From a phage: DNA of 64,000 bases. The position numbers and the translations under genes are program-made. The notes beneath the pieces are model-generated. The model was not told where the DNA came from. It worked only from the letters and a program-made list of their open reading frames with translations, and did no database searches. Position 1 is the first letter of the stretch. The number at the start of each line of letters is the position of its first letter. Shown piece by piece: positions 33,472 through 48,145 of this stretch. The stretch lies in the sequence record PZ496581.1. The stretch is one strand, 5' to 3'.

Positions 33472-33774
33472 TTAGATAGATGTAGGCTCTAATTTTATTT
33501 TCATGAACTCGGCAAATTGTCTGGCAGTTTTTATGCCTTGTTCATGACATTCAAATGCATCATCACAGGGGCTATTTTTGTAATGCTTTGCCATATACTT
33601 ATAGAATTTTTCAGAATTCTCGACATTTTGAATTTCAAACAAAGTATATACGTTTTTAATCCCTGATTCCATAAAGTTACCAAAATATGGGTCGATATAT
33701 GCAGTACCAACGATAGGAGTTGTTGCTGCAAAAAACCCCAGCATCGCCATGACAGCTATCGCTCTTAAGGACAT
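33472..33774 (-). CDS. small exported protein, 100 aa
   Basis: Signal-peptide-like N-terminus [23 protein letters not shown]. Confidence 0.5.
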
Positions 33775-33998
33775 ATAGGCCTCCTGTTAATTTTGGCCAG
33801 TATTATTTTTCGCCTTTGGACGGCCTTAACATCTGCGAGGTATTTTTCCAGCTTGCGCTTGCGTGTATAATCAGCTTTAGAACCAGTTTGACGGATATCC
33901 TCGTTTAAATGAGAAATAGAATGTCCTAATTCTCTTCGGATTTCATCCAATTGGGTTACAGTAAGATTACGAAGTTGTCTTTCGTTTAATTGCTGCAT
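33765..33998 (-). CDS. hypothetical protein, 77 aa
   Basis: ORF track. Confidence 0.45.
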
Positions 33999-34025
33999 AT
34001 ATACCTCTTGGTTAGATATTAGTAT

Positions 34026-34607
34026 TTATAACAACCCTGTCAAATCGTTCCAATGCTTCCGGCATAATGACACATATCTATCGGTATCACCAATTTCAAT
34101 TTGACTGCCATCTGTAATTGGAAGTCCGTCTTCCGTGACTCTAGCTACCATTGTGGCCTTTTTACCACAATGACAGACACCTTTAAGTTCAACAAGCTTA
34201 TCGGCAATAGCCATTAATGCTTGAGAACCTTCAAATAGATTACCTTTAAAATCTGTTCGTAGTCCATATGCCATTACCGGCACATTGTATACGTCAACAA
34301 TACGACTAAGTTGATACACCTTTTCAGTAGTTAAGAACTGAGCTTCGTCAACAAATACACAGTGAATATCCTTTTGTGCTGCAGCCCATTTATAGAATTC
34401 AAAGATATCCATGTCTTTTGTAATTATATTGGCATCCTGACGAATACCAATACGAGAGACTATTTCACCTTTTGAATCGCGAGTATCAATAGCCGGTTTA
34501 AGAACTAATACACCCATGCCACGTTCTTTATAGTTATGTGCGGCAGTAAGTAATGAAGCAGACTTACCAGCGTTAATAGCGGCATAGGTAAAAATTAAAC
34601 TAGCCAT
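34026..34607 (-). CDS. tk: thymidine kinase, 193 aa
   Basis: P-loop AINAGKS, VDEAQF, C-terminal Zn motif CHCG...CRKH. Confidence 0.92.
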   Translation of the reverse strand: MASLIFTYAAINAGKSASLLTAAHNYKERGMGVLVLKPAIDTRDSKGEIVSRIGIRQDANIITKDMDIFEFYKWAAAQKDIHCVFVDEAQFLTTEKVYQLSRIVDVYNVPVMAYGLRTDFKGNLFEGSQALMAIADKLVELKGVCHCGKKATMVARVTEDGLPITDGSQIEIGDTDRYVSLCRKHWNDLTGLL

Positions 34608-34616
34608 AAGAGTCCC

Positions 34617-34799
34617 TTATAGTGAATTCACGTAGTCAATGAGTTCTTGTTCTTTCCTGTCAAATGATTCCAACAATGCTTGATATCCTTCGTCCGTCAA
34701 AGGAGCATATTCATCATACGCATTGGTGGCTGCTTGCTCATCCAATAGGTCATGGATAAGTTCGAACAGTTTAGTTTTCTCTTCTTTAGTCAATTTCAT
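34617..34799 (-). CDS. hypothetical protein, 60 aa
   Basis: ORF track. Confidence 0.4.
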   Translation of the reverse strand: MKLTKEEKTKLFELIHDLLDEQAATNAYDEYAPLTDEGYQALLESFDRKEQELIDYVNSL

Positions 34800-35023
34800 T
34801 TAGGTTCACCTTCTTTAACGAAATCTGGGTAAGGGTAAAATCCTGAGTAAAACCCTTCACCTTTATGATTGCTACAACCTTTGTTCGAACAGTAACACCA
34901 ATAATCAAAATCACAAGCCATTTCGTCATTGCATAAAGCAAAAACTACAGGCCATTCGCATTTTTCGCATTTAGCACCTGTAAGAATTTTTGTTTGACTC
35001 ATAGCCATGTCACCTTTAAGCAA
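34796..35023 (-). CDS. Cys-rich small protein, 75 aa
   Basis: ORF track. Confidence 0.45.
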   Translation of the reverse strand: MLKGDMAMSQTKILTGAKCEKCEWPVVFALCNDEMACDFDYWCYCSNKGCSNHKGEGFYSGFYPYPDFVKEGEPK

Positions 35024-35226
35024 TATTCTTCTACATGTTGTTTACGGCCTTTCTTATCAATAAAGGTATATTCAACGAATGTTCCGATGTAGTCTTTATC
35101 TACATCATGTGGACTATTAATTGGACATTTGGTACGACAAATGCGTTCCCATTGACGAATAATTACTGCCTTATTCTTTGGGTCATATGGATGTGGATAA
35201 TGTATATTCATAATAACGGTTCCCAA
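34999..35226 (-). CDS. hypothetical protein, 75 aa
   Basis: ORF track. Confidence 0.45.
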   Translation of the reverse strand: MGTVIMNIHYPHPYDPKNKAVIIRQWERICRTKCPINSPHDVDKDYIGTFVEYTFIDKKGRKQHVEEYCLKVTWL

Positions 35227-35705
35227 TCAACAATCACAATTTCTAGTTTAGTGGAATACGTATCTAAAATCTCTTCGATGACATCCCAGTTTCCACCACC
35301 AATACCTGCACCAATTCTTGGCATATAAATTACAGGCTTTGTTATCTTATTCTTTCCGAATTCATTTAATTCTATTATACAATTCATTAAAGCAGAGTAC
35401 TCAAAATTAGGTCCAGGCTCAAACTGTGTATAAAGATTAAAGCAATAAGCTTTATGGGTCTTAAAATATTTTTCATAAACCGAATAAGTCCCGAGTTTAG
35501 ACTCGTCTCCGAATTCTGTTTGAAGTTTATCGGCTTCCAGAATTTTTGGATAAGCCTTTGCTAATTGTCCTGCCACACCAGCGCCCATTGTATGAAAACA
35601 ATTACATCCATGAGCAATATTATTACCTTTAGAAAACAGGGCGACAATATCGCCCTTGATATAGTTTTTAATCACTTGCTGCAAGTCCTCTAGTATAAGA
35701 GTCAA
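35208..35705 (-). CDS. macro-domain protein (ADP-ribose binding/hydrolase candidate), 165 aa
   Basis: AHGCNCFHTMGAGVAGQ and PRIGAGIGGGNW resemble the two macro-domain glycine-rich loops. Confidence 0.6.
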   Translation of the reverse strand: MTLILEDLQQVIKNYIKGDIVALFSKGNNIAHGCNCFHTMGAGVAGQLAKAYPKILEADKLQTEFGDESKLGTYSVYEKYFKTHKAYCFNLYTQFEPGPNFEYSALMNCIIELNEFGKNKITKPVIYMPRIGAGIGGGNWDVIEEILDTYSTKLEIVIVDWEPLL

Positions 35706-36015
35706 CTAGACGGTCCACCATAGAATTGCATGCTGCCTTATCTTTAGGTTCCGCCACCGAGCATTCTAATATTTGCCATTTTTTATAGTATCTTTTAATT
35801 AAGGTAGACGCCTTGAACCTACTAGACGCCCCATCTTTTTCTCCGTCTTTATACGCATATAACAATTTTTGTGAAAAATCTACTTTACACTCTTGACTTT
35901 TACCACAGTAATCAGACGCCGTTCTGTTTGTATACTCCGTTACATCAGTATATGTAGTATTAGCAAGAGCGTTAAATGAAACCAAGCCAACTATTAAAGC
36001 CAACATTTTGGTCAT
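35668..36015 (-). CDS. exported Cys-containing protein, 115 aa
   Basis: Signal-peptide-like MTKMLALIVGLVSFNALA; 4 Cys in mature part. Confidence 0.5.
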   Translation of the reverse strand: MTKMLALIVGLVSFNALANTTYTDVTEYTNRTASDYCGKSQECKVDFSQKLLYAYKDGEKDGASSRFKASTLIKRYYKKWQILECSVAEPKDKAACNSMVDRLVDSYTRGLAASD

Positions 36016-36554
36016 TCTTTTATTTCCAGTAGTTTATTTGATTTAAGGTAATTAGCCTTTTCTAGGACTTCAGAAGCATATTTACTTCCAGCACTTGTCT
36101 TCCATCCCGCATTATATGAGGATATAGCTTTTCTTATATCCCCATTATGTATATTTAACCAATAAGAAAATTCGATATAAGCCCATCTGGCTGAATTAGA
36201 CCGCTTAGATAGCATTTTCTTAATTTGGGCATCAGTCATATTATAACCAAGCTGGTTAATTCTTGCCCTCATTGTTGGTAGATAGTTTTGGAACATTCCA
36301 TACGCATGGTGACCTTTCTTATCTTTAAGATTAATACCGGCAGATGATTCTTGCCATAGTATTGCGGCCATTATGTATCCAAGTCCTTTCTTATGCATAT
36401 TTTCATGCGTTTTAAATTTTCCGTCCTTAGAAAACTGTTCCCCAAACTGATAAGCATAATTCAAGTTATCGAGTTGGACATTACTAAAAGTATGCTCGGA
36501 GCTATGTGCTGATAATGAAAGAGCAAATAGACCAGCGAGTAGTGCTTTTCTCAT
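36012..36554 (-). CDS. periplasmic lytic-transglycosylase-like (SLT-domain) protein, 180 aa
   Basis: Signal peptide MRKALLAGLFALSLSAHS; WQESS and YGMFQ motifs. Confidence 0.55.
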   Translation of the reverse strand: MRKALLAGLFALSLSAHSSEHTFSNVQLDNLNYAYQFGEQFSKDGKFKTHENMHKKGLGYIMAAILWQESSAGINLKDKKGHHAYGMFQNYLPTMRARINQLGYNMTDAQIKKMLSKRSNSARWAYIEFSYWLNIHNGDIRKAISSYNAGWKTSAGSKYASEVLEKANYLKSNKLLEIKE

Positions 36555-36562
36555 GTTTACCT

Positions 36563-37021
36563 CTAGATTTTAATCACTGCTTTAGAAGCTTTTCCCGGTA
36601 GTCGTTTACTGTTAATAATAGCCATTCTACATTGAAGAGTCTTCATTTTGAATGCCGGATTTTCGCGACAAACTGTAAGTCCTAACCAAAGATTTCCATC
36701 AGTTATTTCTAAACGGCCTGGGCGATATTCGACACCTTCGACAAAATCTTCATCAACATCTGGACGTGCCGGCATTGATAAAAATTCTGCAACTTCTTTA
36801 ACATGATTTTTTACTTTACGAAATAATTCAAAAACGTAATTCTCATCTATTTCTCTCTGGATGGCACGATCTAAGAGATGTTGAGAATACTTGATATGAA
36901 AGCCTGGTAGTCCAAGAGACTTTGCAGCATCTTTTATACTGGCATTTATTTTGCGGAACTCCGTTTCAAAGATTCGACGGAGTTTATTACGGCGGATAAA
37001 AACGTCTGAATTGATAGTCAT
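36563..37021 (-). CDS. regB: endoribonuclease RegB
   Basis: MTINSDVFIRRNKLRR...YSQHLLDRAIQREIDE...GRLEITDGNLWLG matches T4 RegB as recalled. Confidence 0.9.
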   Translation of the reverse strand: MTINSDVFIRRNKLRRIFETEFRKINASIKDAAKSLGLPGFHIKYSQHLLDRAIQREIDENYVFELFRKVKNHVKEVAEFLSMPARPDVDEDFVEGVEYRPGRLEITDGNLWLGLTVCRENPAFKMKTLQCRMAIINSKRLPGKASKAVIKI

Positions 37022-37049
37022 TTTGATTTCTCCTCTAGTTGACAGATCT

Positions 37050-37078
37050 ATAGTAACACAACTAGAGGAGAAGTAAAC
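37050..37078 (-). promoter_or_regulatory. early-type promoter of regB; spacer is a 14-nt inverted repeat of the regB RBS region
   Basis: Minus strand GTTTACttctcctctagttgTGTTACTATagatctgtcaactagaggagaaatcaaaATG. Confidence 0.55.
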
Positions 37079-37297
37079 TACTTTATTGATAAAATGGAGT
37101 TAAAGCCCAAGATTCTTTAGATACCATATTGGCGAAATGCCTCATCTCTTCGATTTGGCGACGACGCTGGTCAGCATAGTCTTCTTCGCCTTCTTCCTTA
37201 CAATCTTAAAGGTCTTCTTCAAGATACTTTAAGTATTCACTACAAATTTTGTTGACCTTTTCTTGGAAGTCCAATAACCCAGTAATAGTAGAAGCCA

Positions 37298-37543
37298 TTA
37301 GTATTTTTCCTCAGGCTGAAATACTGCGCGGCAAGCCCACATACTAGCTTCCTTTAGACGCTCTTTAGCACAGTTAAGTTGGGACAAAGCCGTCAGAGCT
37401 TCAGGAGTATTTGCTGATAATGCTTCTTCTGCCAGGGCGTCCAGAATAAGTCCTAAACGAACTTCAGCATCTTTGATAGCATTCACTTTGCCGATTTTGT
37501 CATCGGTGTGTGGTTTGTAACCTTTAATATCTTCAATCGACAT
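37298..37543 (-). CDS. hypothetical protein, about 81 aa
   Basis: Trimmed to internal Met MSIEDIKG. Confidence 0.4.
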   Translation of the reverse strand: MSIEDIKGYKPHTDDKIGKVNAIKDAEVRLGLILDALAEEALSANTPEALTALSQLNCAKERLKEASMWACRAVFQPEEKY

Positions 37544-37757
37544 AAGGAATTTCCTCATCGGTGGCAAGGTCATATTCGACCAATTGGATAGGCTCATTAA
37601 TACCATATCCACGTACAGTGATATCAGTTGTCGGATAGTTTCCAGTAATATCACCCATTCTAAATGATTCAATGAATGATTGCTCGCCTGAGCAACTAAA
37701 CCAGGCGGCAAAACATTTTAAAACATCTTCAGACCCTTCTATAATCAATTTAGCCAT
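37533..37757 (-). CDS. hypothetical protein, 74 aa
   Basis: ATG at 37757. Confidence 0.45.
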   Translation of the reverse strand: MAKLIIEGSEDVLKCFAAWFSCSGEQSFIESFRMGDITGNYPTTDITVRGYGINEPIQLVEYDLATDEEIPYVD

Positions 37758-38120
37758 TATAGACTCTCAGTAAAGGTACGAGCGATAACGTCGCGCTGCT
37801 GTTCTGGAGTCAGAGAGTTAAAGCGAACTGCATAACCGGATACACGGATGGTCAGCTGCGGATATTTTTCCGGATGCTTAACTGCATCTTCCAGAGTTTC
37901 GCGACGCAGAACGTTAACGTTCAGGTGTTGACCACCTTCAATTTTAACTTTAGGTTGATGTTCAATTTCAATTTCACGGGCATGCAAACCGTAGAAAATT
38001 TCCGGGTCTACAATAGCGTCCTTCTTTAAAAGTCTTAGAGACAATAATCCGGGCTTGAGTACCGTCTTCAAAATAAATAGTGCCTTTATGTGCACCTTCA
38101 AGAATTTGATATGCTTTCAT
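37757..38120 (-). CDS. GrcA/YfiD-like autonomous glycyl-radical cofactor, interrupted by an apparent +1 frameshift near 38020
   Basis: ATG 38120 with GAGG SD opens a 42-codon frame; GrcA-like C-terminus ([14 protein letters not shown]...[12 protein letters not shown]) continues in the +1 frame. Confidence 0.55.
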
Positions 38121-38126
38121 ATAACC

Positions 38127-38408
38127 TCAATTAGAAAATAAATTTATCCAAGATTTTTCTTTAATCAAAAATGGGTCGGAATTAAACGCCATTAAACTTT
38201 GAGTGATTAATCCCTTAAATGGCCCATCAATAAATTCCATTTTGAAATGCGGAATACTAGTCATCAACCGTGCATTAGGAGCAGTACAAAGAACCTGCTG
38301 CCCTGCGAACGGGCCTTTAGTCAAACGGTATCGTTTAGGTTTAAAATGGTAAATCTCGTAATTTTCTACAAGGGCCCTTTTATTGCATACTGGGCTGTTA
38401 TAACACAA
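38127..38408 (-). CDS. hypothetical protein, 93 aa (TTG start in ORF track)
   Basis: ORF track. Confidence 0.4.
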   Translation of the reverse strand: MCYNSPVCNKRALVENYEIYHFKPKRYRLTKGPFAGQQVLCTAPNARLMTSIPHFKMEFIDGPFKGLITQSLMAFNSDPFLIKEKSWINLFSN

Positions 38409-38433
38409 TATTCAAAAACTTCAATAGTGGTCA

Positions 38434-38973
38434 TCATTGCATTCCAATCACAAAAAATTGAGGACGAGCATTACCACCGATGCAATATTTGCTTTTGCAG
38501 CAGTGCTGTAATGTTTTAATGTGGACATTGTAAATCTTATCCATATCAGGAGCTTTAATAGGCTCGTCAATTATATACAGAATACGAGAAAGCGTTAATC
38601 CACGGAATTTAGAACCTTCATTGCCAATAAAACTACGAACAGAATCAGTAAATAAACGGAATCGAATATCATCGCTAGAATAACGAGAAAATTCTTTTTC
38701 AATGTTGCCAGCAGAAATTTTAGCATAAGCTGAAGTATTAGAAAGAACAATAACTGTTCCGCCATCATACAGCCAATTAGCAGCAAAGTTAGTCACAGCA
38801 ATTGATTTACCTGATTGTCGGCCACCGTCTAAACGAAGTGTACAGTACTGCTTGAGTACGTCTTCAAATGGTGGGACATAACCGTTCTTACAAATTTCTT
38901 CTACTCTAGCATCAGAATGGTGTGTAAAAGCATTCATCAGGGATAGATAAGGACCAGTTAAAAATGTTCTCAT
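38434..38973 (-). CDS. P-loop-like protein, 179 aa
   Basis: GGRQSGKS Walker-A-like motif. Confidence 0.5.
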   Translation of the reverse strand: MRTFLTGPYLSLMNAFTHHSDARVEEICKNGYVPPFEDVLKQYCTLRLDGGRQSGKSIAVTNFAANWLYDGGTVIVLSNTSAYAKISAGNIEKEFSRYSSDDIRFRLFTDSVRSFIGNEGSKFRGLTLSRILYIIDEPIKAPDMDKIYNVHIKTLQHCCKSKYCIGGNARPQFFVIGMQ

Positions 38974-39145
38974 TTAGTTTCTCTTTTAGGTTGGGCCATT
39001 CCGTGGCACATGTTAGGTCCTTCGACTCGCTATGTAAACCCATTACCGCATTGCGCTCGACCTTATTACAGGTTGGAAAAGGTACATCACTCAGAGGACT
39101 CGACGTTCATAAGGAGAGGTTGCGTTTCCCTTTATTAGGCAAGAA

Positions 39146-39475
39146 TTATACTCTAGGCTTTTGAGCTTGTTTGGTATTGGATTCCCATGCGGCTTTGGTA
39201 ATTTTGTTAGCGGCATAACCAAAGGCATTAGATAGAACACCTTTAGAGTTGAATACATCCAATCCAATAAGTACACCGGCTGTGTTAAATTTAGGAGCAA
39301 AGTACGCATTAGTTTTAGAAAGAGCTTTTTTCAATTCAGGGTCTTGAACCAAGCCATCAAAAACGCCTTTACTATTTACTTTATATGTTACTTTGGGATT
39401 TTTACCTTCTTCGATAGCAGCTTTCTGTTCCGCAGATAATGTAACTTCAGTGATAAACTCCTGATATGTTTTCAA
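39146..39475 (-). CDS. internal-protein-like (capsid targeting sequence MKTYQEFITE), 109 aa
   Basis: N-terminal CTS-like decapeptide ending in Glu; apparent TTG start. Confidence 0.55.
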   Translation of the reverse strand: MKTYQEFITEVTLSAEQKAAIEEGKNPKVTYKVNSKGVFDGLVQDPELKKALSKTNAYFAPKFNTAGVLIGLDVFNSKGVLSNAFGYAANKITKAAWESNTKQAQKPRV

Positions 39476-39500
39476 TTTGTTCCTATTGTTTTAATTTATG

Positions 39501-39815
39501 TTATTCTTTAGGGAAGTTTTTAGAGTATGCATCATAAAGTTTATTACCAATACGACGGAAGACTTTAGCTGCAAAACGGTTTTCAGGGTTTTTAATCATG
39601 ATTTGCATCATGTAAGTTCCTGCATCCGAAAGAGCTTCTTCATAATACCCATTAATTTCTTTAAGAGTCCTACGTTTACCACCAGGACCATCAACAGTAA
39701 TTTTCCATTTACCTGTAGAAGTGCGGCTCGGTGGCTCAACTTGTTCAATCCAAATATAACCACCTTCAACGCGTTGGTTGGCGGATTCTGCAATAAATTC
39801 TTTATACGTTTTCAT
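39501..39815 (-). CDS. internal-protein-like (CTS MKTYKEFIAE), 104 aa
   Basis: ATG start; CTS-like N-terminus. Confidence 0.6.
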   Translation of the reverse strand: MKTYKEFIAESANQRVEGGYIWIEQVEPPSRTSTGKWKITVDGPGGKRRTLKEINGYYEEALSDAGTYMMQIMIKNPENRFAAKVFRRIGNKLYDAYSKNFPKE

Positions 39816-39878
39816 TTTTGTTTCCTTGTTTGTTTTGATAGAGTAATTATACCATATTAATACTTAAGCGTAAACCGT

Positions 39879-40139
39879 TTAAGCTTTACCGCCAGAAATA
39901 ATTCCGAAGTTGTTAAAATCATATCCAATATCGTCAACATCTACTTTAGGACTTGCTACAACATAAGCAATTTCACTACGTTTTGCATAGGTGTTGATTT
40001 CTTTACCATTGCCACCTAAGAAAGAATACCCATTACGTTTTAATGAGCCAAAGTCTTCCGCATCACCAATGAAAGCTTTAACTTTAAATTTAGGGTCTTT
40101 GGTATCTGCTTCAACGATAAATTCTTGATACATTTTCAT
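39879..40139 (-). CDS. internal-protein-like (CTS MKMYQEFIVE), 86 aa
   Basis: ATG start; CTS-like N-terminus. Confidence 0.6.
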   Translation of the reverse strand: MKMYQEFIVEADTKDPKFKVKAFIGDAEDFGSLKRNGYSFLGGNGKEINTYAKRSEIAYVVASPKVDVDDIGYDFNNFGIISGGKA

Positions 40140-40145
40140 TTTTCC

Positions 40146-40559
40146 TTAGTAAATTGATTTACCATAGTATTTGTACCAAGTCGGACGTTGAGCAATTTTT
40201 TCATCTAAGCGTGCTTGACTTATCGCAATGGACGCTTCGGGCGGGACATAATTATTACGAAATTCGGCAGGGATGTCGGAAATATCCTGGACTGTCGTGT
40301 CCTTGATTTTGAAACCACGTTTCAAACATTCAGCGATTAGCTCGATTTGACGTAAACGTAAAAATTCGAGTTTGTCGTAAAAGAATGTTACGTGACCTGT
40401 GCCTAAGATAAATGTTGGAGAGATTTTAAAATCCTTTACACGTTTACCGTTTTGAACATGTTTACGGACTGCACCAAATACGCGTGGTAATTCACGATAC
40501 TCAGCCATAAGATGTTGGTCGGTCAGTTCAGAAACAAGTGTTAAATTGATACGGGTCAT
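40146..40559 (-). CDS. denV: endonuclease V (pyrimidine-dimer DNA glycosylase) DenV
   Basis: [12 protein letters not shown]...[16 protein letters not shown] matches T4 DenV as recalled; start trimmed to MTRINL. Confidence 0.9.
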
Positions 40560-40582
40560 AATTTCCTCCAAGTAGTTGATGA

Positions 40583-40616
40583 ATGTATAGTATCAAAGTC
40601 CTTGGAGGAAGTAAAC
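40583..40616 (-). promoter_or_regulatory. early-type promoter of denV; spacer TTCCTCCAAG is the inverse complement of the RBS region CTTGGAGGAA
   Basis: Minus strand GTTTACttcctccaaggactttgatacTATACATtcatcaactacttggaggaaattATG. Confidence 0.55.
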
Positions 40617-40617
40617 A

Positions 40618-40899
40618 CTATTTTTCTGAAGCGCCTGAAATATATTTTTCAAGACGTTGTTTCATCAGCGAGCCGTTCTTAGCGATTTCTTCCGGTTTAT
40701 CGCACATACGTAACAAGGCTTCAAGCTTAGCGATATCGCTGGTACGTTCAAATTTGCGAGTATCTATCTTACTAGCAAGTTCAGAAATACGTGCTAGTAG
40801 ACTTTCGGCTTCAACCAAAGCTGCACCTAGCTTAGTTGCAAATGTGTCAGTAGCTTCGTTAAGAATAGATTCTGATAAAAATTCACTATATGTTTTCAT
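40618..40899 (-). CDS. internal-protein-like ([13 protein letters not shown]), about 94 aa
   Basis: Start trimmed to MKTYSEF. Confidence 0.55.
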
Positions 40900-41384
40900 A
40901 TATACGCTTTCCAAGTTCCTGTTTTAAATGTTGAGATTACGCGTTTCGCGCGATTAGGTGTCTGACGATACCATTTAGATTGGGCTAGATTTACTGCCGC
41001 TTCATCCCAACGTTTCTGTTGAAGCATACGAAGAGAATTAGTAAAACCAGCGACGCCTGCTACACCCATTTGGAAGACCATATTGACCAATGCACATCGA
41101 CGAACCGCATCTAAAGAATCATATACCGGTTTAAGTTTAGCATTACCCAAGATTCCGCGAACGGCTTTATCGACGTCTTCATTAAATAGCTTTTCAGCCT
41201 CATCAAGGGTAATTGTACCGTTGCATTTACGTCCGATCATTCTGTCAAGTTCAGCTTTAGCTACGGCTAAAGACGGGTTCTTTGTTACTAAATGGCCTAT
41301 GCCAATCGTCCAAAAGCCTTCAGTGTCTTTGTATAAAGTCAGTCTAAGACCTTCGTCATTACGAAGCATTTCAAATATATTCAT
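40896..41384 (-). CDS. e: lysozyme e (endolysin), 162 aa
   Basis: [15 protein letters not shown]...TIGIGHL matches T4 lysozyme as recalled; start trimmed to MNIFEML. Confidence 0.93.
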
Positions 41385-41412
41385 AATACCTCCCACGTTT
41401 ATAGGAGGTATT
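41385..41412 (-). promoter_or_regulatory. RBS-sequestering inverted repeat upstream of lysozyme e (AUACCUCC...GGAGGUAU)
   Basis: 8-bp inverted repeat with the SD in the 3' arm, directly 5' of the ATG. Confidence 0.5.
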
Positions 41413-41418
41413 TATTAC

Positions 41419-41877
41419 TTATAGGAGGGTAGTGAGCACCTTATATAATGATTTGCCCATTACATATTCCCATTGAGAAGGTTTAATTAAAGCGAATGCA
41501 TCAAATTCAGGAATCTGTCGTCCGTCTGGGAATGTATGATAGGAATTACAAACACTGTTTCTGAATTGCTCGTGCTCTACAGGGATGGTATATAGGAACA
41601 GATGAATATTCTTATTGTCTGAGTAATGATGTTCACCTAGGTCTTTCAGGAAGGCAGGGTCATATTGTGTAAACCCAGTTTCTTCTTCGCATTCACGAAT
41701 AGCGGCTTCAATAGGAGATTCACCCGGCTCGACACGTCCTTTAGGAATATCCCACCGATGAGCTAAAGAACCTTTAGGACGAGAACCAGTTACACGCCCC
41801 ATGAATAATTCTTTATCTTCGGTAAGGAAAATAATACCGGCTGATAGTTCTTTCACTTTATTTTTCTTACTCATCAT
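41419..41877 (-). CDS. nudE: Nudix hydrolase NudE
   Basis: Nudix box GRVEPGESPIEAAIRECEEETG. Confidence 0.85.
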   Translation of the reverse strand: MMSKKNKVKELSAGIIFLTEDKELFMGRVTGSRPKGSLAHRWDIPKGRVEPGESPIEAAIRECEEETGFTQYDPAFLKDLGEHHYSDNKNIHLFLYTIPVEHEQFRNSVCNSYHTFPDGRQIPEFDAFALIKPSQWEYVMGKSLYKVLTTLL

Positions 41878-42118
41878 CTCGGTCCCATGATTTGGCCATT
41901 AATTCGGACATAAATTCTTCAATGCGCGTTTCTTTAGATGGACTTTCACTATTAGAGACCGCAAGTTTGTAATCTGCAATAGGACAGAACATATCAAGGT
42001 CCATATTAAGGTCGTCTTTGATTTTTTCTTCTGACACATCTTTATCGTATGTGTACAGATAACTATCACATGATTCTGATTTAATGTAAATTGCTATACT
42101 CATCTCAAATTCCTGCAT
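41867..42118 (-). CDS. hypothetical protein, 83 aa
   Basis: ORF track. Confidence 0.45.
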   Translation of the reverse strand: MQEFEMSIAIYIKSESCDSYLYTYDKDVSEEKIKDDLNMDLDMFCPIADYKLAVSNSESPSKETRIEEFMSELMAKSWDRDDE

Positions 42119-42591
42119 TCGGTAATAAAACGTTCAACTTCATTATTCTTGGCTTTTATCTTGTCTTTATGTTCTTGTAAACTACTTTTAATAAGATTAA
42201 TAATGATGGCGACAGTGCCGCCGCCAATGATGCCACCAATAATACTTACGATAGTAGATGCTAATAAGATAGCAATAATATCAACAAAACCGAAAGAACT
42301 CACCTTAGTACTAAAAAACCATACCGATGGTACAAATATAATCCATCCTGCTATCCATTGGCACTTATTGAAAAACTTTTCAAGATCAGCTTGAGTTGTT
42401 CGTATTACTTCATCGATAGGTTGATAACCGTTAATGTATCTGTTCACGATAATACCTGCTGGCTGGTCGATTTTAAATTCTTGGCAAATACGTTTAACTA
42501 AGTAGGATGGACATCCTGTCCAATCTACTGAATAGTATGAAATACCTTTATTGCCGTCGTCTATATTAGACCAATATGTTTTGTTAATCAT
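42100..42591 (-). CDS. membrane protein, 163 aa
   Basis: Hydrophobic segments, Gly-rich helix IIGGIIGGG. Confidence 0.5.
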   Translation of the reverse strand: MINKTYWSNIDDGNKGISYYSVDWTGCPSYLVKRICQEFKIDQPAGIIVNRYINGYQPIDEVIRTTQADLEKFFNKCQWIAGWIIFVPSVWFFSTKVSSFGFVDIIAILLASTIVSIIGGIIGGGTVAIIINLIKSSLQEHKDKIKAKNNEVERFITECRNLR

Positions 42592-43160
42592 TACCAGCCT
42601 TCCATAGGGAATTCCAGATAAACTTGAGCGTTGACACGAATTTCATTGGTAATCTTTTTAACTCGGTCTGTATTACGAGATACACGTCCGAACCAACGCC
42701 ATCCATTACTAATTGCACGAGAACCAGTGTGCCATGTTTGCCAATCAAACTGAAGAAGAGTACGGTCCGGAGCTTCCCATTTCTCTAGTTCACCTTTTTC
42801 AATTTTTTCGAGGACTTCTTTGTGCCACTGACGATAGATAAGTTCGCCATCAGAAGTTTTAACATCTACAACCCAATCGCCATCTTTCTCTTCAACCTGT
42901 GGTTTATCCCAAGAAATACTAATATATGATTCACTGTCAATAGAAGTCGCCGGGTTTTTCTTTACTGTAAGACCTTCACTTTCCAGCCATTCAATAGTAT
43001 TTGCGCATAACTCAGAAGAACACCTCATCGGAAACCGGCAAGATTTTTCACCTTTAGCTGCGGTGTTATACATCTTTTCTAAAATACGCTTTTGCACGTT
43101 TTTAAAAATAGTTTCAGCCGATTCTTCAGATTTTTTATTCAGTTCAGTATAAAGACTCAT
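42591..43160 (-). CDS. hypothetical protein, 189 aa
   Basis: ATG with AGAGGAAAA SD; early promoter at about 43185-43217 upstream. Confidence 0.55.
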   Translation of the reverse strand: MSLYTELNKKSEESAETIFKNVQKRILEKMYNTAAKGEKSCRFPMRCSSELCANTIEWLESEGLTVKKNPATSIDSESYISISWDKPQVEEKDGDWVVDVKTSDGELIYRQWHKEVLEKIEKGELEKWEAPDRTLLQFDWQTWHTGSRAISNGWRWFGRVSRNTDRVKKITNEIRVNAQVYLEFPMEGW

Positions 43161-43184
43161 AACATTTTCCTCTGTAGTTGATAA

Positions 43185-43217
43185 GTCTATAGTATCACAT
43201 CTAGGGAAGAAGTAAAC
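43185..43217 (-). promoter_or_regulatory. early-type promoter
   Basis: Minus strand GTTTACttcttccctagatgtgatacTATAGAC. Confidence 0.5.
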
Positions 43218-43269
43218 AACTTTTTTAGTAAGTTATAGACCCCCTAATGGGGACCGAAGTCCCCATTCT

Positions 43270-43896
43270 TTACTTACGAGTTTTTGCATACTGAGCAGCG
43301 TCAGCAGCCAAACGACCTGCTTGTCGAAGTTTTTCTTTAATCTCATCATGAAGTGGTTGAGTATACTTCAAACCTTCGATAGTCAAATAAAGACGATAAA
43401 GGTCTGGGGTATCAAGGTTGTTGATATGTTGGCCATTACGAAGAATATTGAATTCACGAACGAGTGAAGATGTATCAGATTCAATATCACGAACAAGCGA
43501 AGATAGTTGTTTATATTTTTTTTCCAGGCTAGAAGTATCAAACTTAAGAGCAGGAGCTTTAGGAGTTGCTTTTACTTCCGGCTTAGGCTCAGGTTTTGCT
43601 ATTGCTTTAGGGGACGCAGGTTTAGGAATGGTAGGAGCAGGTTTTACTTTAGGCGAACCCGATTTAGCAGAAACACCACCACTAACAATATCTTTGAATG
43701 CTTTAGAAGCTCTGTAATATTCTTTTTGGCTGGAAGTGTCGATACCGTACATGGCTTGAACGTTTTTGAAAAACTCTGTACTAGTTTTTGTACCAGAAAT
43801 AGCATCGTAAGCAGCTTGCCATTTCTCTTTTGTCATACGTACACCGGCTTCGGTGATTACTTCCGTTTCGGCTAAAAATTCATTAAAAGTATACAT
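43270..43896 (-). CDS. internal-protein-like (CTS-like MYTFNEFLAE), 208 aa, Pro/Lys/Ala-rich middle
   Basis: ATG start; CTS-like N-terminus; late promoter TATAAATA upstream. Confidence 0.55.
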   Translation of the reverse strand: MYTFNEFLAETEVITEAGVRMTKEKWQAAYDAISGTKTSTEFFKNVQAMYGIDTSSQKEYYRASKAFKDIVSGGVSAKSGSPKVKPAPTIPKPASPKAIAKPEPKPEVKATPKAPALKFDTSSLEKKYKQLSSLVRDIESDTSSLVREFNILRNGQHINNLDTPDLYRLYLTIEGLKYTQPLHDEIKEKLRQAGRLAADAAQYAKTRK

Positions 43897-43931
43897 TGAT
43901 GGTCCTTAGAAAGTAGGTTTATTGTTTACTA

Positions 43932-43939
43932 TATTTATA
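43932..43939 (-). promoter_or_regulatory. late promoter TATAAATA
   Basis: Minus-strand TATAAATA about 35 nt upstream of the 43896 ATG. Confidence 0.55.
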
Positions 43940-43940
43940 C

Positions 43941-43969
43941 AAAAAAGCCCCAACCTTTCGGAAGGGGCT
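43941..43969 (-). terminator. rho-independent terminator, second copy of the 33436-33464 element
   Basis: GCCCC...GGGGC hairpin plus U-tract; ends the tRNA/small-RNA transcript. Confidence 0.65.
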
Positions 43970-44011
43970 ATATACCTTGTCGGGTTCCCACCTGCTAAGG
44001 CAAGTGTTTGT

Positions 44012-44103
44012 ACGAAACGCCGGGATTCGAACCCGGTTATTAAGCAGTTGACGCTACTCAATATTTTTAAAAGGCCATATCTCGACCATATCCGAACGTT
44101 CCG
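44012..44103 (-). ncRNA. tRNA-like small RNA (canonical T-arm, paired acceptor ends; no clean cloverleaf)
   Basis: Minus strand has CCGGG-TTCGAAT-CCCGG and complementary 7-nt ends CGGAACG/CGTTTCG; about 92 nt. Confidence 0.3.
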
Positions 44104-44635
44104 TCAAAAACGCTACTCGGCTTACGGCAAAGATATTTCCTCGAATCGATAATTCTGTGCGCCGTTTCTGCTGTGATGTAAGGGGATATTAACGAATCAT
44201 AAAGATTTATTAAGACCAGTCCTTACTCAGGGAACATCAGTCCGACGACTTGCCGGTAGCGACCCGGCTTCTTATTTTGGCATATCATCAATTTGCTCTC
44301 GACGCCGACGCCATAGATTAATCGCTTCATAAACACATTCAGCATTTGGTATATGACGACAATAGTATAGTGATTCGCGTTTCTGGAACCGATGTTGTAA
44401 TGGAATTTCGTTTAAAAGGTCTTTACGGTCAAAGTATTCAAAACTAGTTAACCCTGAACGGTTTTTAAGAAACTTCCAATGTCCGAATTCATTTTGAAAA
44501 TAGACATAATCAGCATGCTGATACAGCGAATTAATTAACCTATCGGAAATAACTGTTTCACGTTCGTTAAAATAAAACGTTAAGTCATGAACTACCAGAT
44601 AAATATTGCCCTTTCATATTTTCCTCACTTGAAGT

Positions 44636-44711
44636 TGGTGCCTCTAGAAAGATTTGAACTCTCACCATTAACCTTAGAATGATTATATGCTATCCATTAC
44701 ACTATAGAGGC
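44636..44711 (-). tRNA. tRNA-Arg (anticodon TCT)
   Basis: Hand-folded cloverleaf: acceptor GCCTCTA/TAGAGGC, anticodon loop ATTCTAA, T-loop TTCAAAT, encoded CCA; 76 nt. Confidence 0.8.
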
Positions 44712-45362
44712 AATTAAATTATTTACAATATCTTCTTTATAAACTTCAGCATAATGAAGTTCATATATTTCCCATCCTAATGATTTTATAATATCATGGC
44801 GTTCTTTATAATAAGGGGCCAAAATCTTTTTCTTAGGATTGGAGTAATGTTGATTTCCATTAACTTCAATAATAATCTTTTTATCTATTAAAGCGATATC
44901 CGTGCAATACGCTCGGTTTTTAACCGGTTGGTATTCTTCAATAAATGAAATTCCGTTTTCTATTAATTTAGATTTCAAAAATTCACAAGGCACAGATTTA
45001 AATTTTGTATTTTTCTTCCAAGGATGTTTATCGGGGTTTTCATTCAACCATTTTTTCCGAGCATTAGATATTTTTATTCTAGATTCCTCAGAGTGTTCTC
45101 TACCTAATGAAGCGGCTGACAATTTTTGTCTAGTCTCTTCCGAAATTACTACAGGAACACCAGTCTTTTTAGATACAACATACTGGTTTAAATTACCTGA
45201 AGCTATACGTGCTTTATTCATTGCTGCAATGGCTGATTTAGAACTTTCTTTATACAATTCCAATTTAGGGTTGGATTTACACCATCTAGTGTGGTTAGCC
45301 ATCCATCCTTTAGGTTTATTAGAAATATCAAATTCCATATTACAATGTTTACAAATGCTCAT
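44697..45362 (-). CDS. freestanding endonuclease-like protein (N-terminal Zn finger, NUMOD-like repeats, C-terminal DUF559/Vsr-like nuclease motif), about 221 aa
   Basis: CKHC...HTRWC; IALIDKKIIIEVNGNQHY motif; lies inside the tRNA cluster; stop overlaps tRNA-Arg 3' end. Confidence 0.55.
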   Translation of the reverse strand: MSICKHCNMEFDISNKPKGWMANHTRWCKSNPKLELYKESSKSAIAAMNKARIASGNLNQYVVSKKTGVPVVISEETRQKLSAASLGREHSEESRIKISNARKKWLNENPDKHPWKKNTKFKSVPCEFLKSKLIENGISFIEEYQPVKNRAYCTDIALIDKKIIIEVNGNQHYSNPKKKILAPYYKERHDIIKSLGWEIYELHYAEVYKEDIVNNLIASIV

Positions 45363-45372
45363 TACCAATTAT

Positions 45373-45390
45373 CTCCTATAAATATAGGAG
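45373..45390 (-). promoter_or_regulatory. perfect 8-bp palindrome CTCCTATA-aa-TATAGGAG over the endonuclease RBS
   Basis: Hairpin would sequester the AGGAG SD of the 45362 ATG. Confidence 0.45.
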
Positions 45391-45435
45391 TATTTATTAT
45401 TTGGATAGAGCACTTAATTTACTTCGTTTAAATTA

Positions 45436-45507
45436 CTGGCGCACTTGGACTCGAACCAAGATAAAGGAGTTAACAGCTCCCCGTAATAACCTTTATACGA
45501 TGCACCA
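45436..45507 (-). tRNA. tRNA-Asn (anticodon GTT), no encoded CCA
   Basis: Hand-folded: acceptor TGGTGCA/TGCGCCA, anticodon loop CTGTTAA, T-arm CTTGG-TTCGAGT-CCAAG; 72 nt. Confidence 0.6.
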
Positions 45508-45513
45508 TTTGTT

Positions 45514-45588
45514 TGGTGACCCTGGCTGGTTTCGATCCAGCTACCTATCAGTTATGAGCTGACAGCTCTCCCATTGAGCTACAGGGCC
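45514..45588 (-). tRNA. tRNA with CAT anticodon (elongator Met or Ile2), encoded CCA
   Basis: Hand-folded: acceptor GGCCCTG/CAGGGTC, D-arm GCTC-AATGGGA-GAGC, anticodon loop CTCATAA; 75 nt. Confidence 0.8.
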
Positions 45589-45667
45589 TAAATAACTTTC
45601 TATTATGAAAGGCACTTTAGAGCACCTTTGGTAATAGAGGGTACGAATTAATAATAACACATAATTC

Positions 45668-46183
45668 TTAAAGCAAATCAATCATTTTAACAGTTGGCAA
45701 AACGATTTCTTCTTCAATATAAGCAAATTCAACACATTCAACTACACGCAAGAAATCATAATCATAATATTCAGAAGCATGGCCAAGAATATCAATGAGA
45801 CCTTCTGATACCAAATATCCATTCTCACGGAACAGGTCGAATACACGCGATTCGTCTTCTTCAGATTTATTACCAAGGTCGACTTCAATATCAAAGACCT
45901 TTTTAATGAATTCTGGATAAAGCTGGTCTGAGAACAGTCCTTCAACCAAGTATTCATAGATTAAAAGCGAGCAATCACTGAATGGTGTATTACCACAGTA
46001 ACGTTCAGCTTTAGTGCTAGAATGACGACTCTTAAATTTCTTCAAGAGATATTTAAACTGTTGGAGCTCATGCTCTTCCACACCAAATAATGTTTTGGTT
46101 TTATAGTTGTCGCCGTCATTTTCCGAAGTAGTGACATCAATTACGTAACCCTTAGGAATTGTACTGCCTAAACAAATATTCAT
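45668..46183 (-). CDS. hypothetical protein, 171 aa
   Basis: ORF track. Confidence 0.55.
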   Translation of the reverse strand: MNICLGSTIPKGYVIDVTTSENDGDNYKTKTLFGVEEHELQQFKYLLKKFKSRHSSTKAERYCGNTPFSDCSLLIYEYLVEGLFSDQLYPEFIKKVFDIEVDLGNKSEEDESRVFDLFRENGYLVSEGLIDILGHASEYYDYDFLRVVECVEFAYIEEEIVLPTVKMIDLL

Positions 46184-46187
46184 TTAC

Positions 46188-46478
46188 TCACCGTACCATA
46201 TTAATGTAATTATATTCAATGCAACGTAATTTCAAAGGATTCTTGAAAATATCATATTCAAGAGGGCCTTTTTCTGTTTCAATAAAGAAATCAAAGTTAA
46301 CTGTGTTAAATTTATCATCTTCACAGAGTAATTTAACCTGTGAAGATGAACGGTCGATATAAACCTTTTCAACCTCAAAGTTAGTCAGAATACCGTAGTC
46401 ATCGACTAGTGCTTTAGCTGCACGTTGATCGCTTTCATATCCATTCTCAATGGACGATACTTTAGCATAAAGAATCAT
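46188..46478 (-). CDS. hypothetical protein, 96 aa
   Basis: ORF track. Confidence 0.5.
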   Translation of the reverse strand: MILYAKVSSIENGYESDQRAAKALVDDYGILTNFEVEKVYIDRSSSQVKLLCEDDKFNTVNFDFFIETEKGPLEYDIFKNPLKLRCIEYNYINMVR

Positions 46479-46855
46479 GAATGTTCCACCATTTCAAAGG
46501 TATGAGCATCAACAATATGATACCAGTCAAAATTTTCTTCTGCGTTTTTATAAATTTCGCGAAGAGCCTCAACAGTTTTTCCTGTAGCAACAAGGTCGTC
46601 AATACCACCAAGAGGATAACAGTCATAACCAGCAAACAGAAGGAAATTAATAGTTTCTGTAGGTTCTGGATGCAGAACACCGTTATCGTCTACCACTTCA
46701 AAGAAAGTGTAAGAAGGAGTACAAGTTTTAATCCAAGCCCATGCTTGAGCTGCTGAATCAAATGGTCTGCGTATCAAACGACAATCAGGGTCTTTAGAAG
46801 GATTTGCTTCAAAATCCGCATATACGTGATATTTCATTTTACTCACCTTTTGCAA
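46475..46855 (-). CDS. hypothetical protein, 126 aa
   Basis: ORF track. Confidence 0.5.
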   Translation of the reverse strand: MQKVSKMKYHVYADFEANPSKDPDCRLIRRPFDSAAQAWAWIKTCTPSYTFFEVVDDNGVLHPEPTETINFLLFAGYDCYPLGGIDDLVATGKTVEALREIYKNAEENFDWYHIVDAHTFEMVEHS

Positions 46856-47045
46856 TTTTATCCATAACGATAGCGATTAAGCCGATTAGAAATGCTACTA
46901 CCAATGAGATAGAGTTTTCAGTTGTTGTCAGTAGTCCACAAATGAATCCTACAAACATCGAAAAACTAAAAGCCATTGAAGCAATTACTACAGCAACATT
47001 ACGAATCAGTTCAGCGCGTTTCATTTTATTTCTCCATTTACTCAT
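46839..47045 (-). CDS. small membrane protein
   Basis: Hydrophobic core; true start may be ATG 47024. Confidence 0.45.
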   Translation of the reverse strand: MSKWRNKMKRAELIRNVAVVIASMAFSFSMFVGFICGLLTTTENSISLVVAFLIGLIAIVMDKIAKGE

Positions 47046-47059
47046 TTGTTTTGATAGGA

Positions 47060-47091
47060 CTACTATAACATAGTCCTATCAGCATGTAAAC
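47060..47091 (-). promoter_or_regulatory. early-type promoter with GATAGGACTA/TAGTCCTATC inverted repeat around the -10
   Basis: Minus strand GTTTACatgctgataggactaTGTTATAGTagtcctatc. Confidence 0.5.
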
Positions 47092-47094
47092 TAC

Positions 47095-47382
47095 TTACAG
47101 AAGAGTTTTTGCAATAATTTTAAGCTGAGCTACAGAAATATGCTTAGCTTTAAACAGTGCAGTCTCTTCAGCCGGAGAGATAACAATAGTAGCGCCATCT
47201 TTCTTGGCAGACCATCCATCCCCTAAGTAAACAGTACCTTTTACTTCTTCGCCGTCAACCAGACTAATCATTGGTTTACCCTCACGTCCTTTATTTGCTT
47301 TAATAACTTCGGAAGTAAGGGTTGCTTCGGTCAGAGTAGAAACGTTAGCAACAGGTGATATAAATTCTTGATAGGTTTTCAT
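47095..47382 (-). CDS. internal protein I-like (CTS MKTYQEFISP), 95 aa
   Basis: ATG start; CTS-like N-terminus; T4 ipI position next to 57B. Confidence 0.6.
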   Translation of the reverse strand: MKTYQEFISPVANVSTLTEATLTSEVIKANKGREGKPMISLVDGEEVKGTVYLGDGWSAKKDGATIVISPAEETALFKAKHISVAQLKIIAKTLL

Positions 47383-47416
47383 TTTATTTCCTTGAGGTTG
47401 TTTATTTGATAGGATG

Positions 47417-47446
47417 ATAGTAACACACCATCATCCTTATGTAAAC
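47417..47446 (-). promoter_or_regulatory. early-type promoter with AGGATGAT/ATCATCCT inverted repeat
   Basis: Minus strand GTTTACataaggatgatggtgTGTTACTATcatcct. Confidence 0.5.
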
Positions 47447-47459
47447 TGGTTTGTGAAAA

Positions 47460-48145
<686 letters not shown>

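Follow-up and report, generated by a model that had tools for sequence, protein, structure and literature searches.

We analyzed a window of 64,000 nt from a phage genome (the whole stretch of sequence record PZ496581.1 considered here) and focused on six open reading frames (ORFs), all located on the minus strand between positions 39146 and 47382, whose predicted products begin with a capsid targeting sequence (CTS) of the type found in the internal proteins (Ips) of phage T4. We refer to these genes as ipA, ipB, ipC, ipD, ipE and ipI. The first, ipA (39146..39475), starts with TTG and encodes a precursor of 109 amino acids (aa) with the CTS MKTYQEFITE↓V, where the arrow marks the predicted cleavage site. 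The Ip10-like ipB (39501..39815) encodes 104 aa beginning with MKTYKEFIAE↓S, and ipC (39879..40139) encodes 86 aa beginning with MKMYQEFIVE↓A. In the 93-aa precursor of the Ip5-like ipD (40618..40899) Ser follows the first site, and a second site, SILNE↓A, is found at residue 15. The 208-aa precursor of ipE (43270..43896) has a divergent CTS, MYTFNEFLAE↓T, and a second site, VITE↓A, at residue 16. Finally, ipI (47095..47382) encodes a 95-aa precursor in which a 19-residue propeptide, MKTYQEFISPVANVSTLTE, is predicted to be cut before an Ala that opens the 76-aa mature protein IPI*.

A preliminary description of this DNA had reported six ORFs with T4-type CTSs in this region, and we found all of them. 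The motif M-x-x-[YF]-x-E-F-[ILVM] heads five ORFs with an ATG start and one with a TTG start in the 64 kb, compared with a mean of 0.067 in 300 shuffles, or 0.003 when only motifs followed by an ORF of 60 aa or more are counted. Both strict and looser CTS patterns gave no ORF start in the 64 kb beyond the six, and a repeat finder that is blind to proteins ranked the six segments coding for the CTS first among direct repeats (families D1 and D2). For T4 IPIII it is known that the first ten residues suffice for head incorporation, and amber-suppressor substitutions assigned positions 4 and 7 to targeting and positions 8 and 10 to processing (PMC9026906); cleavage by gene product 21 (gp21) occurs after Glu in I/L-x-E (PMC12991175). 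In ipA to ipE and ipI, position 4 is Y, Y, Y, Y, F and Y, respectively, and position 7 is F in all six. The tripeptide [L/I]-x-E occupies positions 8-10 in five of the six (ITE, IAE, IVE, LSE and LAE) and positions 17-19 in ipI (LTE), with additional sites at 13-15 in ipD (LNE) and 14-16 in ipE (ITE). An aromatic residue at position 4, Phe at position 7 and a propeptide ending in [L/I]-x-E, which characterize T4-type CTS head proteins, were thus all found at the sequence level. Two details of the preliminary description had to be amended: the decapeptides end in Glu in five of the genes, but ipI has Pro at residue 10 and carries LTE↓A at residues 17-19, and the ORF at 40618, although a real gene, had been started at an upstream TTG (40914), whereas its CTS begins at the ATG at 40899. 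The view that the bodies are unrelated to each other stood, as BLASTP among the six gave nothing better than E = 1.1. All six genes show Shine-Dalgarno (SD)-like AGGA/AAGGA sequences or translational coupling, and all but ipE are found at the classical polymorphic ip loci of T-even phages, around denV/e and between tRNA.4 and 57B.

Targeting sequences in environmental contigs

A scan of IMG/VR with the 23 nt that open the CTS, corresponding to its first 8 codons, gave at least 120 loci. Among the matches listed, 133 of 134 have a complete ORF of 40 aa or more that starts at the matched ATG, and the CTS ORFs give 106 unique proteins of 53-610 aa that belong to at least 39 body families. The exact form of the CTS heading the environmental ORFs is MKTY[QK]EF[IM] (loci L009-L128, for example L011, L067 and L093). 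Residue 10, which the search pattern left free, is Glu in 92 of the 106 proteins among these matches, against a background of 4.8%, and this retention of Glu 10 is independent support for a predicted coupling of targeting and processing. At least 24 of the environmental CTS loci also hold T4-like gp14-gp23 genes with 27-45% identity, and the terminase of one environmental CTS contig is 85% identical to that of cyanophage P-SSM2. A tblastn search with an environmental CTS protein against cultured phages gave no match, and the tag was not found in the gp13-gp18 region of P-SSM2. Since the CTS and T4-like genes occur together on distant contigs, conservation of the tag and of its cleavage site must reach far past the T-evens of enterobacteria. 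We found no mention of this spread in the literature searched, although prior knowledge of it is possible. The literature counts 'at least 10' Ips. If ORFs were collected by their CTS, a large number of injected effectors could be catalogued and new anti-defence mechanisms might emerge.

The same data bear on whether the common N-terminus is a peptide tag at all or a nucleic-acid signal, such as a translation-initiation region or a recombination handle. The 30-nt CTS segments were indeed recovered as DNA repeats, and the CTS DNA together with the upstream ribosome-binding site (RBS) and promoter might offer homology for cassette exchange (repeat D3: 69 nt, 72%). However, in pairwise comparisons only 18-25 of the 30 nt are identical (60-83%), and the mismatches are mostly synonymous, so that the peptide is conserved. 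From this variation at synonymous sites it follows that selection acts on the peptide and not on the DNA. The retention of Glu 10 likewise extends to cyanophage-like contigs whose core genes are only 27-45% identical to those of T4, and in T4 itself amber-suppressor substitutions and reporter fusions prove that the CTS functions at the peptide level (PMC9026906). A nucleic-acid signal is therefore, in our judgment, scarcely credible.

Six unrelated bodies

The clearest assignment was obtained for ipI. Its residues 20-95 align to positions 1-76 of the Pfam profile IPI_T4 (PF11634) with 169.7 bits against a cut-off of 25, and PDB entry 2JUB is matched with E = 5.7e-42. The mature protein (predicted 8.0 kDa, isoelectric point (pI) 9.0) is identical to RB69 IPI* and agrees with T4 IPI* (2JUB) in 72 of 76 residues. 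By this homology ipI is a true IPI. It shares with T4 IPI the length of the precursor (95 aa), the 19-residue propeptide, the position of the cleavage site and the slot between tRNA.4 and 57B. The propeptide ends in LTE↓A in ipI and in ITE↓A in T4 IPI, and the four differences in the mature part are I47V, A84V, H86Q and N93T (precursor numbering). Between T4 and the source phage, the synonymous rate (dS) of IPI is 0.86 and the ratio of non-synonymous to synonymous rates (dN/dS) is 0.08, which indicates strong purifying selection. A match of the N-terminus to DUF7412 (17.5 bits, cut-off 27) fell below threshold and was rejected. In an alignment to T4 IPI, IPII and IPIII, as named in the preliminary description, ipI matched IPI, but no body gave a BLASTP match to T4 IpII or IpIII better than E = 1.3, and Ip2 and Ip3 are thus not found in the source phage. 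IPI* guards T-even DNA against GmrSD (PMC3012670), and RB69 IPI was reported to protect RB69 from the same enzyme (PMC6024577). By analogy with what has been published for the T4 and RB69 proteins, the mature product of ipI is a predicted inhibitor of the CT596-type GmrSD type IV nuclease.

Three of the other genes have relatives that are named as internal proteins. The product of ipB (predicted mature protein 94 aa, 10.8 kDa, pI 9.6) is 72% identical over 100% coverage to 'Ip10' of Shigella phage SP18 (E = 1.9e-44), and this alignment places it in the Ip10 family; it occurs in 190 phage records, one of which is labelled 'putative internal head protein'. A Pfam match of ipB to CsgH (E = 0.074) was below threshold, and its AlphaFold model, built on a 3-sequence alignment (mean predicted local distance difference test (pLDDT) 46.8), was too poor for a fold search. 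The gene ipC (predicted mature protein 76 aa, 8.2 kDa, pI 6.4) is the orthologue of RB69 ORF125c, an 'internal head protein', matches the phrog_2667 profile of that name with E = 2.9e-21 and was found in 218 records. Relatives are annotated with the same start of ipD, the ATG at 40899, which shares bases with the stop codon of gene e in the overlap ATGA. Its predicted mature product (8.6-9.2 kDa, pI 6.3-8.1) matches phrog_3499 'internal head protein' with E = 2.1e-46, 'ip5' of phage VR20 with 89% identity (E = 6e-48) and Ip5 of RB51 with 51% identity over 90% of the length (E = 2e-17), and the RB51 annotation ties Ip5 to RB69 ORF127c. On these matches ipD can be assigned to the Ip5 family. We found no named functions for Ip5 or Ip10 in the literature search.

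For ipA (predicted mature protein 99 aa, 10.7 kDa, pI 9.7) no named homologue and no Ip name were found in any source or record listed. It is the orthologue of RB69 ORF123c and occurs in 91 phage records, and the 20 of these that were listed call it 'hypothetical', save one with the label 'RNA polymerase ADP-ribosylase', which is probably a mis-annotation. Both ipA and ipB match phrog_3966, and we considered whether they might be paralogues. This was rejected: the hhalign alignment is confined to 14 CTS columns and disappears when the CTS is removed, so their joint membership in phrog_3966 is due to the CTS alone.

The gene ipE (predicted mature protein 21.3-22.0 kDa, pI 9.6-9.7) is the divergent member of the set. 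It was found in 139 phage records, comprising Mosigvirus, Dhakavirus, Karamvirus and phages of Serratia, Kosakonia and Klebsiella, and none of the 40 records listed carries an internal-protein annotation, nearly all being labelled 'hypothetical'. A profile search of 1.84 billion representatives gave 13 relatives, and every full-length one that we inspected has a CTS-like N-terminus; the second [L/I]xE site is near-invariant in the family, even at very low identity. In the AlphaFold model (mean pLDDT 73.6) a small helical N-domain (residues ~20-72) is joined by a disordered linker rich in Pro, Lys and Ala (74-113) to a confidently modelled helical C-domain (122-206). A Foldseek search of the model against PDB gave no match at E <= 0.001, the best being generic helical hairpins, and a Pfam match to SIX1_SD (E = 0.098) was below threshold. 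Two remote relatives keep the N-domain and linker and have a different C-terminal domain. In the relatives P0028, P0031 and P0030 we observed the CTS, the second [L/I]xE site, the N-domain and the Lys/Pro linker, with an unrelated C-domain in some of them, and P0030 connects the family to the RB51 ORF140 type, which occupies the same slot in Tequatrovirus. RB51 ORF140 and RB69 ORF149c have the same architecture as ipE and are weak matches to the ipE profile, and the profile scored E = 0.26 against T4 IpIII and E = 3.4 against T4 IpII. The ipE slot lies on the e.8 side of the tRNA genes, where CTS ORFs are also present in JS98, RB51, RB69 and fGh-Ecl01. As far as we found in the literature searched, this modular, effector-like architecture has not been described. 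We tentatively propose that ipE represents an unrecognized internal-protein family of several genera, in which two cleavage sites and a conserved N-domain are combined with a Lys/Pro-rich linker and an exchangeable C-domain, and that its target is possibly not GmrSD. We likewise tentatively take the exact T4 CTS for a portable loading tag on at least 39 unrelated cargo families.

The charge of these proteins raises the question of whether some of them, above all the basic proteins ipA, ipB and ipE, have a mainly structural role and no specific host target, helping packaging or ejection as counter-ions to the DNA or as components of the core. Their mature forms have a pI of 9.6-9.7 and a net charge of +5 to +13. 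In size and charge class ipA and ipB are akin to T4 IPII* (9.8 kDa, pI 9.6) and ipE to T4 IPIII* (20.4 kDa, pI 9.65, compared with ~21-22 kDa and pI 9.6-9.7 for mature ipE). A 40-residue disordered linker rich in Lys, Pro and Ala, a late promoter of its own and conservation across several genera, in contrast to the fast-swapping cassettes, would also suit such a role of ipE. However, the equally basic T4 IPII and IPIII are specific GmrSD inhibitors and non-essential, RB69 is viable despite a split allele in the ipE slot, and swaps of the C-terminal domain, as seen in the ipE family, are typical of effectors. A mainly structural role thus appears rather doubtful to us.

We further compared the genes with their Mosigvirus relatives. 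For ipA, ipB, ipD, ipE and ipI, dN/dS is 0-0.3 in most comparisons, similar to the neighbouring genes denV, nudE, 57B and 1; the ipA-RB69 pair gives 0.85, from 4 substitutions only. The values for ipC are 0.5-0.63, with 5-6 amino-acid changes in 86 residues, small counts for which diversifying selection could be an explanation. Several of the ipC changes sit in the first few residues past the predicted cleavage site.

Gene order, promoters and cassette slots

The region 39000-47500 is matched by 886 phage records, of which the top ones are the Mosigvirus genomes vB_Eco_mar005P1, vB_EcoM_G53 and AV111 with ~97% identity and 88-89% query coverage. Positions 1-17638 of the window are colinear with RB69 24365-42000 at 97.5% identity. 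On these alignments the source phage is an RB69-like T-even of the genus Mosigvirus, ~97% identical to vB_Eco_mar005P1, G53 and RB69. The arabinose-pathway cluster of RB69, ORF045c-055c, falls within RB69 24365-42000. We observed that the window opens inside this type of DNA-modification cluster (1-6250, homologues of RB69 ORF045c-055c, 97.5% identity to RB69), which includes dCMP-hydroxymethylase-like, nucleotidyltransferase-like and arabinose-5-phosphate isomerase genes. In the terms of the T-even map, the gene order around the six genes is vs.8, three small ORFs, denV, one small ORF, e, nudE, e.2 and further genes, followed by the tRNA genes, tRNA.2-4, ipI, 57B, 57A, 1 and 3.

An exact T4 late-promoter box, TATAAATA, is located 35 nt upstream of the ipE ATG (43932..43939, on the minus strand like all elements listed here), in agreement with the late promoter that the preliminary description had assigned to this gene. 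It is the sole exact minus-strand box between 34031 and 48499. The box stands right after a terminator-like hairpin with U-tract (43941..43969, deltaG -16.0 kcal/mol), and a second hairpin with a 9-bp stem (43246..43267, deltaG -15.5 kcal/mol) lies directly 3' of the ipE stop codon. It is followed downstream by the early-promoter-like sequence TTTACT N16-17 TACTAT (43189..43217), which belongs to repeats D11 and D15 and recurs downstream of ipD. Hence ipE has the layout of a putative autonomous late unit, consisting of terminator, TATAAATA box, RBS, gene, hairpin and then an early-type promoter. The copy between ipD and denV reads TTTACT N17 TACTAT (40587..40616). Upstream of ipB we found a promoter of sigma-70/T4-early type, TTTACG N17 TATAAT with a TG extension (39846..39875, 10/12 matches). 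Two elements of the PeSL type flank ipI: upstream, TTTACA N17 TACTAT over a 12-bp stem-loop (47408..47446, deltaG -15.4), and downstream, TTTACA N17 TATAGT plus a stem-loop (47053..47091, deltaG -17.7). The latter is 75% similar to the ipB promoter region (repeat D6), and a 90% identical copy exists elsewhere in relatives. The early-type promoters of ipB and ipI, with TG-extended -10 boxes, were the best matches of the promoter scan. The PeSL consensus (TTTACW N17 TAYWAT with an AGNA-loop-TCNT stem) has been reported as a cassette-shuffling element of T4-like phages (PMC4122927).

The six genes fill four polymorphic slots, namely vs.8-denV, denV-e, e.8-tRNA and tRNA.4-57B, whose contents vary among T4, RB69, LF82-1, mar005P1, JS98, RB51, WG01 and fGh-Ecl01. 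Such polymorphism of ip cassettes was reportedly first described by Repoila et al. 1994, from whom the Ip4-Ip13 nomenclature is also said to come. In T4, IpIII and IpII lie between e and denV, in addition to IpI. RB69 has the same genes in slots 1 and 2 as the source phage; in addition, an Ip7-like gene stands beside its ipI, and the allele in its ipE slot is split and highly diverged. In the Mosigvirus LF82-1 an orthologue of T4 IpII replaces ipA and ipB between vs.8 and denV, and an Ip7-like gene is present as well. JS98, WG01, RB51 and fGh-Ecl01 carry other sets (Ip4, Ip5, Ip7, IpIII, a 132-aa protein and others), and Ip5 occupies the ipI slot in RB51, whereas here it lies between e and denV. 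As read from these comparisons, the cassettes are bracketed by promoter/stem-loop elements and swapped between phages. In the tRNA.4-57B gap of JS98 we additionally noticed two unannotated CTS ORFs (L005 18261-18554, 97 aa, MKTYQEFIKE; 18634-18843, 69 aa, GTG start, MKSYKEFLTE).

Two further differences from relatives were observed between ipD and ipI. In the segment 42591-43160, with the junction at ~42847-42853, 5.85 kb are missing compared with vB_Eco_mar005P1 (L001 5357-11209). The absent segment holds ~14 small genes, including e.3-e.6 and frd.3, and the junction fuses two unrelated genes in frame to a chimeric 189-aa ORF, for which a Pfam search gave no informative match. The second difference is an insert of 877 bp between tRNA-Arg and tRNA-Met (44640-45516), which is not found in mar005P1, LF82-1 or RB69. 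A 223-aa ORF within it (44697-45368) combines a NUMOD3 motif with a DUF559/endonuclease-like domain, and a tRNA-Asn (45436-45507) is also present. The insert occupies the place of segB in T4 and resembles the insertion of a homing endonuclease, although not one of GIY-YIG type.

Putative roles and known systems

We consider it very probable that the six genes together make up the Ips of an RB69-like Mosigvirus and that their products dock by their CTS, are cleaved by gp21, are retained in the head and are co-injected. The sequence itself shows the tag, the cleavage motifs, the identities of the genes, their cassette structure and purifying selection. By analogy with the experiments in T4, we have high confidence that the six products would be targeted, cleaved and injected. 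The ~10 N-terminal residues of each precursor (M-K-T-Y-x-E-F-[I/L]-x-E) would dock the protein on the scaffolding core during prohead assembly. Then gp21 would cut after the Glu of [L/I]-x-E, at residue 10 in five proteins and at residue 19 in IPI, and possibly also after residue 15 in ipD or 16 in ipE. The mature proteins of 8-22 kDa would remain in the head beside the packaged DNA and would be ejected with it into the cell ahead of any phage gene expression. Inside the cell, IPI* would bind and block the CT596-type GmrSD type IV nuclease. The other five, by analogy with T4 Ip1-3, would neutralize other pre-existing host defences against incoming DNA; such a function is likely, and type IV restriction need not be involved.

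Several observations weigh against this reading. The literature search returned no virion proteomics of a Mosigvirus, so that packaging, cleavage and injection are what we infer. Neither gp21 nor gp22 is encoded in the window and genes 20-24 lie outside the 64 kb; these genes, which include the prohead protease and the scaffold core, are core genes of T4-related phages (PMC9026906). No informative fold or family match was obtained for the bodies of ipA-ipE in searches of Pfam, of PDB sequences (nothing better than E = 0.1) and, for ipE, with Foldseek. An exact TATAAATA box is lacking before the other five genes, which have early-type or no recognizable promoters, and boxes with one mismatch occur at chance frequency (166 observed, 174 expected); for these five, therefore, a supply in the late phase relies on the precedent of T4. 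Furthermore, a screen of ip4-ip10 against five additional active GmrSD systems gave no reproducible inhibition (PMC12373910). The start codon of ipA (39473-39475) is a weak TTG, compared with ATG in mar005P1 and RB69. Finally, four alleles of RB69 look damaged: ORF123c (3450-3779 of L004) has the change E10A in its CTS, ORF124c (L004 3848-4120) is truncated with a frameshifted C-terminus, the CTS of ORF127c (L004 4923-5204) is scrambled to MKTYMNFYQN, and the gene in the ipE slot (L004 13429-13991) is split into ORF149c and ORF148c. These genes are therefore dispensable on the laboratory host, and the damage itself may reflect decay during laboratory passage or old sequencing errors.

The last two points could also mean that some of the six were left behind by cassette shuffling and are decaying or silent, keeping the tag by descent while their products are neither synthesized nor packaged any more. 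None of the 54 phage records covering 39446-39505 is 100% identical there, and the TTG of ipA appears to be private to the source phage; it may lower ipA expression or be a sequencing error. The disruptive changes in four of the RB69 alleles, as well as the 5.85-kb deletion and the 877-bp insertion that show the neighbourhood to be in flux, would fit with such decay. However, TTG is a legitimate start codon and an SD-like AGGA lies upstream of it, all six ORFs are intact with SD-like sequences, five of them show dN/dS values of 0-0.3 in most comparisons, and identical or near-identical full-length alleles are present in 91 to 497 phage records. We therefore regard decay as very unlikely.

A further question is what the five proteins other than IPI act on. 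The idea of an injected anti-restriction repertoire, which the preliminary description had put forward for these genes, is also reportedly credited to Repoila 1994. It has been published by Rao & Black 2010 (PMC3012670) and Silas 2025 (PMC12373910). T4 Ip1, Ip2 and Ip3 each block a different GmrSD without cross-protection, with IPII and IPIII (Ip2 and Ip3) inhibiting the GmrSD variants of ECOR21 and ECOR17 (Silas 2025, PMC12373910), and IPIII, which is needed on ECOR17, is active without its CTS when supplied in the cytoplasm (PMC9391042). For this protein class the repertoire idea is well supported; in the present set it is established only for IPI, and it is a plausible one for the other five. 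It is quite possible that the five are injected effectors which do not inhibit type IV restriction and instead meet other first-line host targets, for example other nucleases, sensors of abortive infection, or transcription and translation in the host, as does the packaged Alt ADP-ribosyltransferase. This is suggested by the lack of reproducible inhibition of the five additional GmrSD systems by ip4-ip10, by bodies unrelated to one another and to Ip1-3, by the near-neutral charge of ipC and ipD compared with the basic Ip1-3, and by cargo of up to 610 aa behind the CTS in other T4-like phages, which makes the tag a general delivery device. On the other hand, all three internal proteins with known targets act on enzymes of the GmrSD family, the diversity of GmrSD is large and partly sampled, and the published screen used phages with glucosylated hydroxymethylcytosine (glucosyl-hmC) only and no arabinose-modified phage (PMC12373910).

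The preliminary description had also suggested that the repertoire is matched to the DNA modification of the phage, and here it was contradicted for IPI*, the only one of the six whose function is known. This protein differs at only 4 of 76 residues between T4, whose DNA is of the glucosyl-hmC type, and the source phage, which carries RB69-type arabinose modification genes. This modification has been described as arabinosyl-hmC (ara-hmC; PMC6024577) or as arabinosylated 5-hydroxycytosine (PMC13326640). Cassettes similar to Ip2, Ip5, Ip7 and Ip10 are likewise common to Tequatrovirus and Mosigvirus. Because IPI* and these cassettes occur in glucosyl- as well as arabinosyl-type phages, a matching to the modification finds no support, and the inhibitors appear to be matched to host nucleases and not to the sugar.

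Overall, the finding is already known in kind: the six genes are a normal Mosigvirus internal-protein set and involve no new principle. Their assignment to T4-type internal proteins in the preliminary description is borne out by CTS determinants in all six, by one true IPI and by three members of the Ip5, Ip10 and 'internal head protein' families. Accordingly, one gene has a known function, three are labelled as internal proteins in public records, and two (ipA and ipE) are unlabelled in the records listed but agree with the others in the sequence features of the class. Minor gains are the late-transcribed CTS family that spans genera (ipE) and the occurrence of the CTS on at least 39 cargo families, including those of cyanophage-like contigs. 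Internal proteins enter the cell with the phage DNA and can thus disarm nucleases that destroy DNA before phage genes are expressed, and all three T4 internal proteins now have type IV restriction targets. The window provides a clean six-member set from an arabinose-modified phage, and its five non-IPI genes would be sensible choices for screens of host range and anti-defence activity and for host-range engineering in phage therapy.

We finally compared the set with known systems of head-packaged proteins, using literature descriptions only for those outside the T4-related phages. The propeptide-targeted ejection proteins of the giant phages SPN3US and phiKZ are similarly packaged in the head and delivered together with the DNA, and those of SPN3US are cut by the prohead protease after Glu, whereas their targeting sequences and families differ from those of the CTS proteins. 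Those of P22 and T7, which also travel in the head and enter the cell with the DNA, build a conduit for the DNA instead of being cargo that carries a CTS and is cleaved. In T4, IPII and IPIII share with the set the CTS, the gp21 site at residue 10 and the e-denV neighbourhood. Ip4-Ip13 of the T-even/RB phages, of which Ip5, Ip7 and Ip10 appear by name in GenBank records, are polymorphic cassettes that have only the CTS in common, as is the case for ipB, ipC and ipD.

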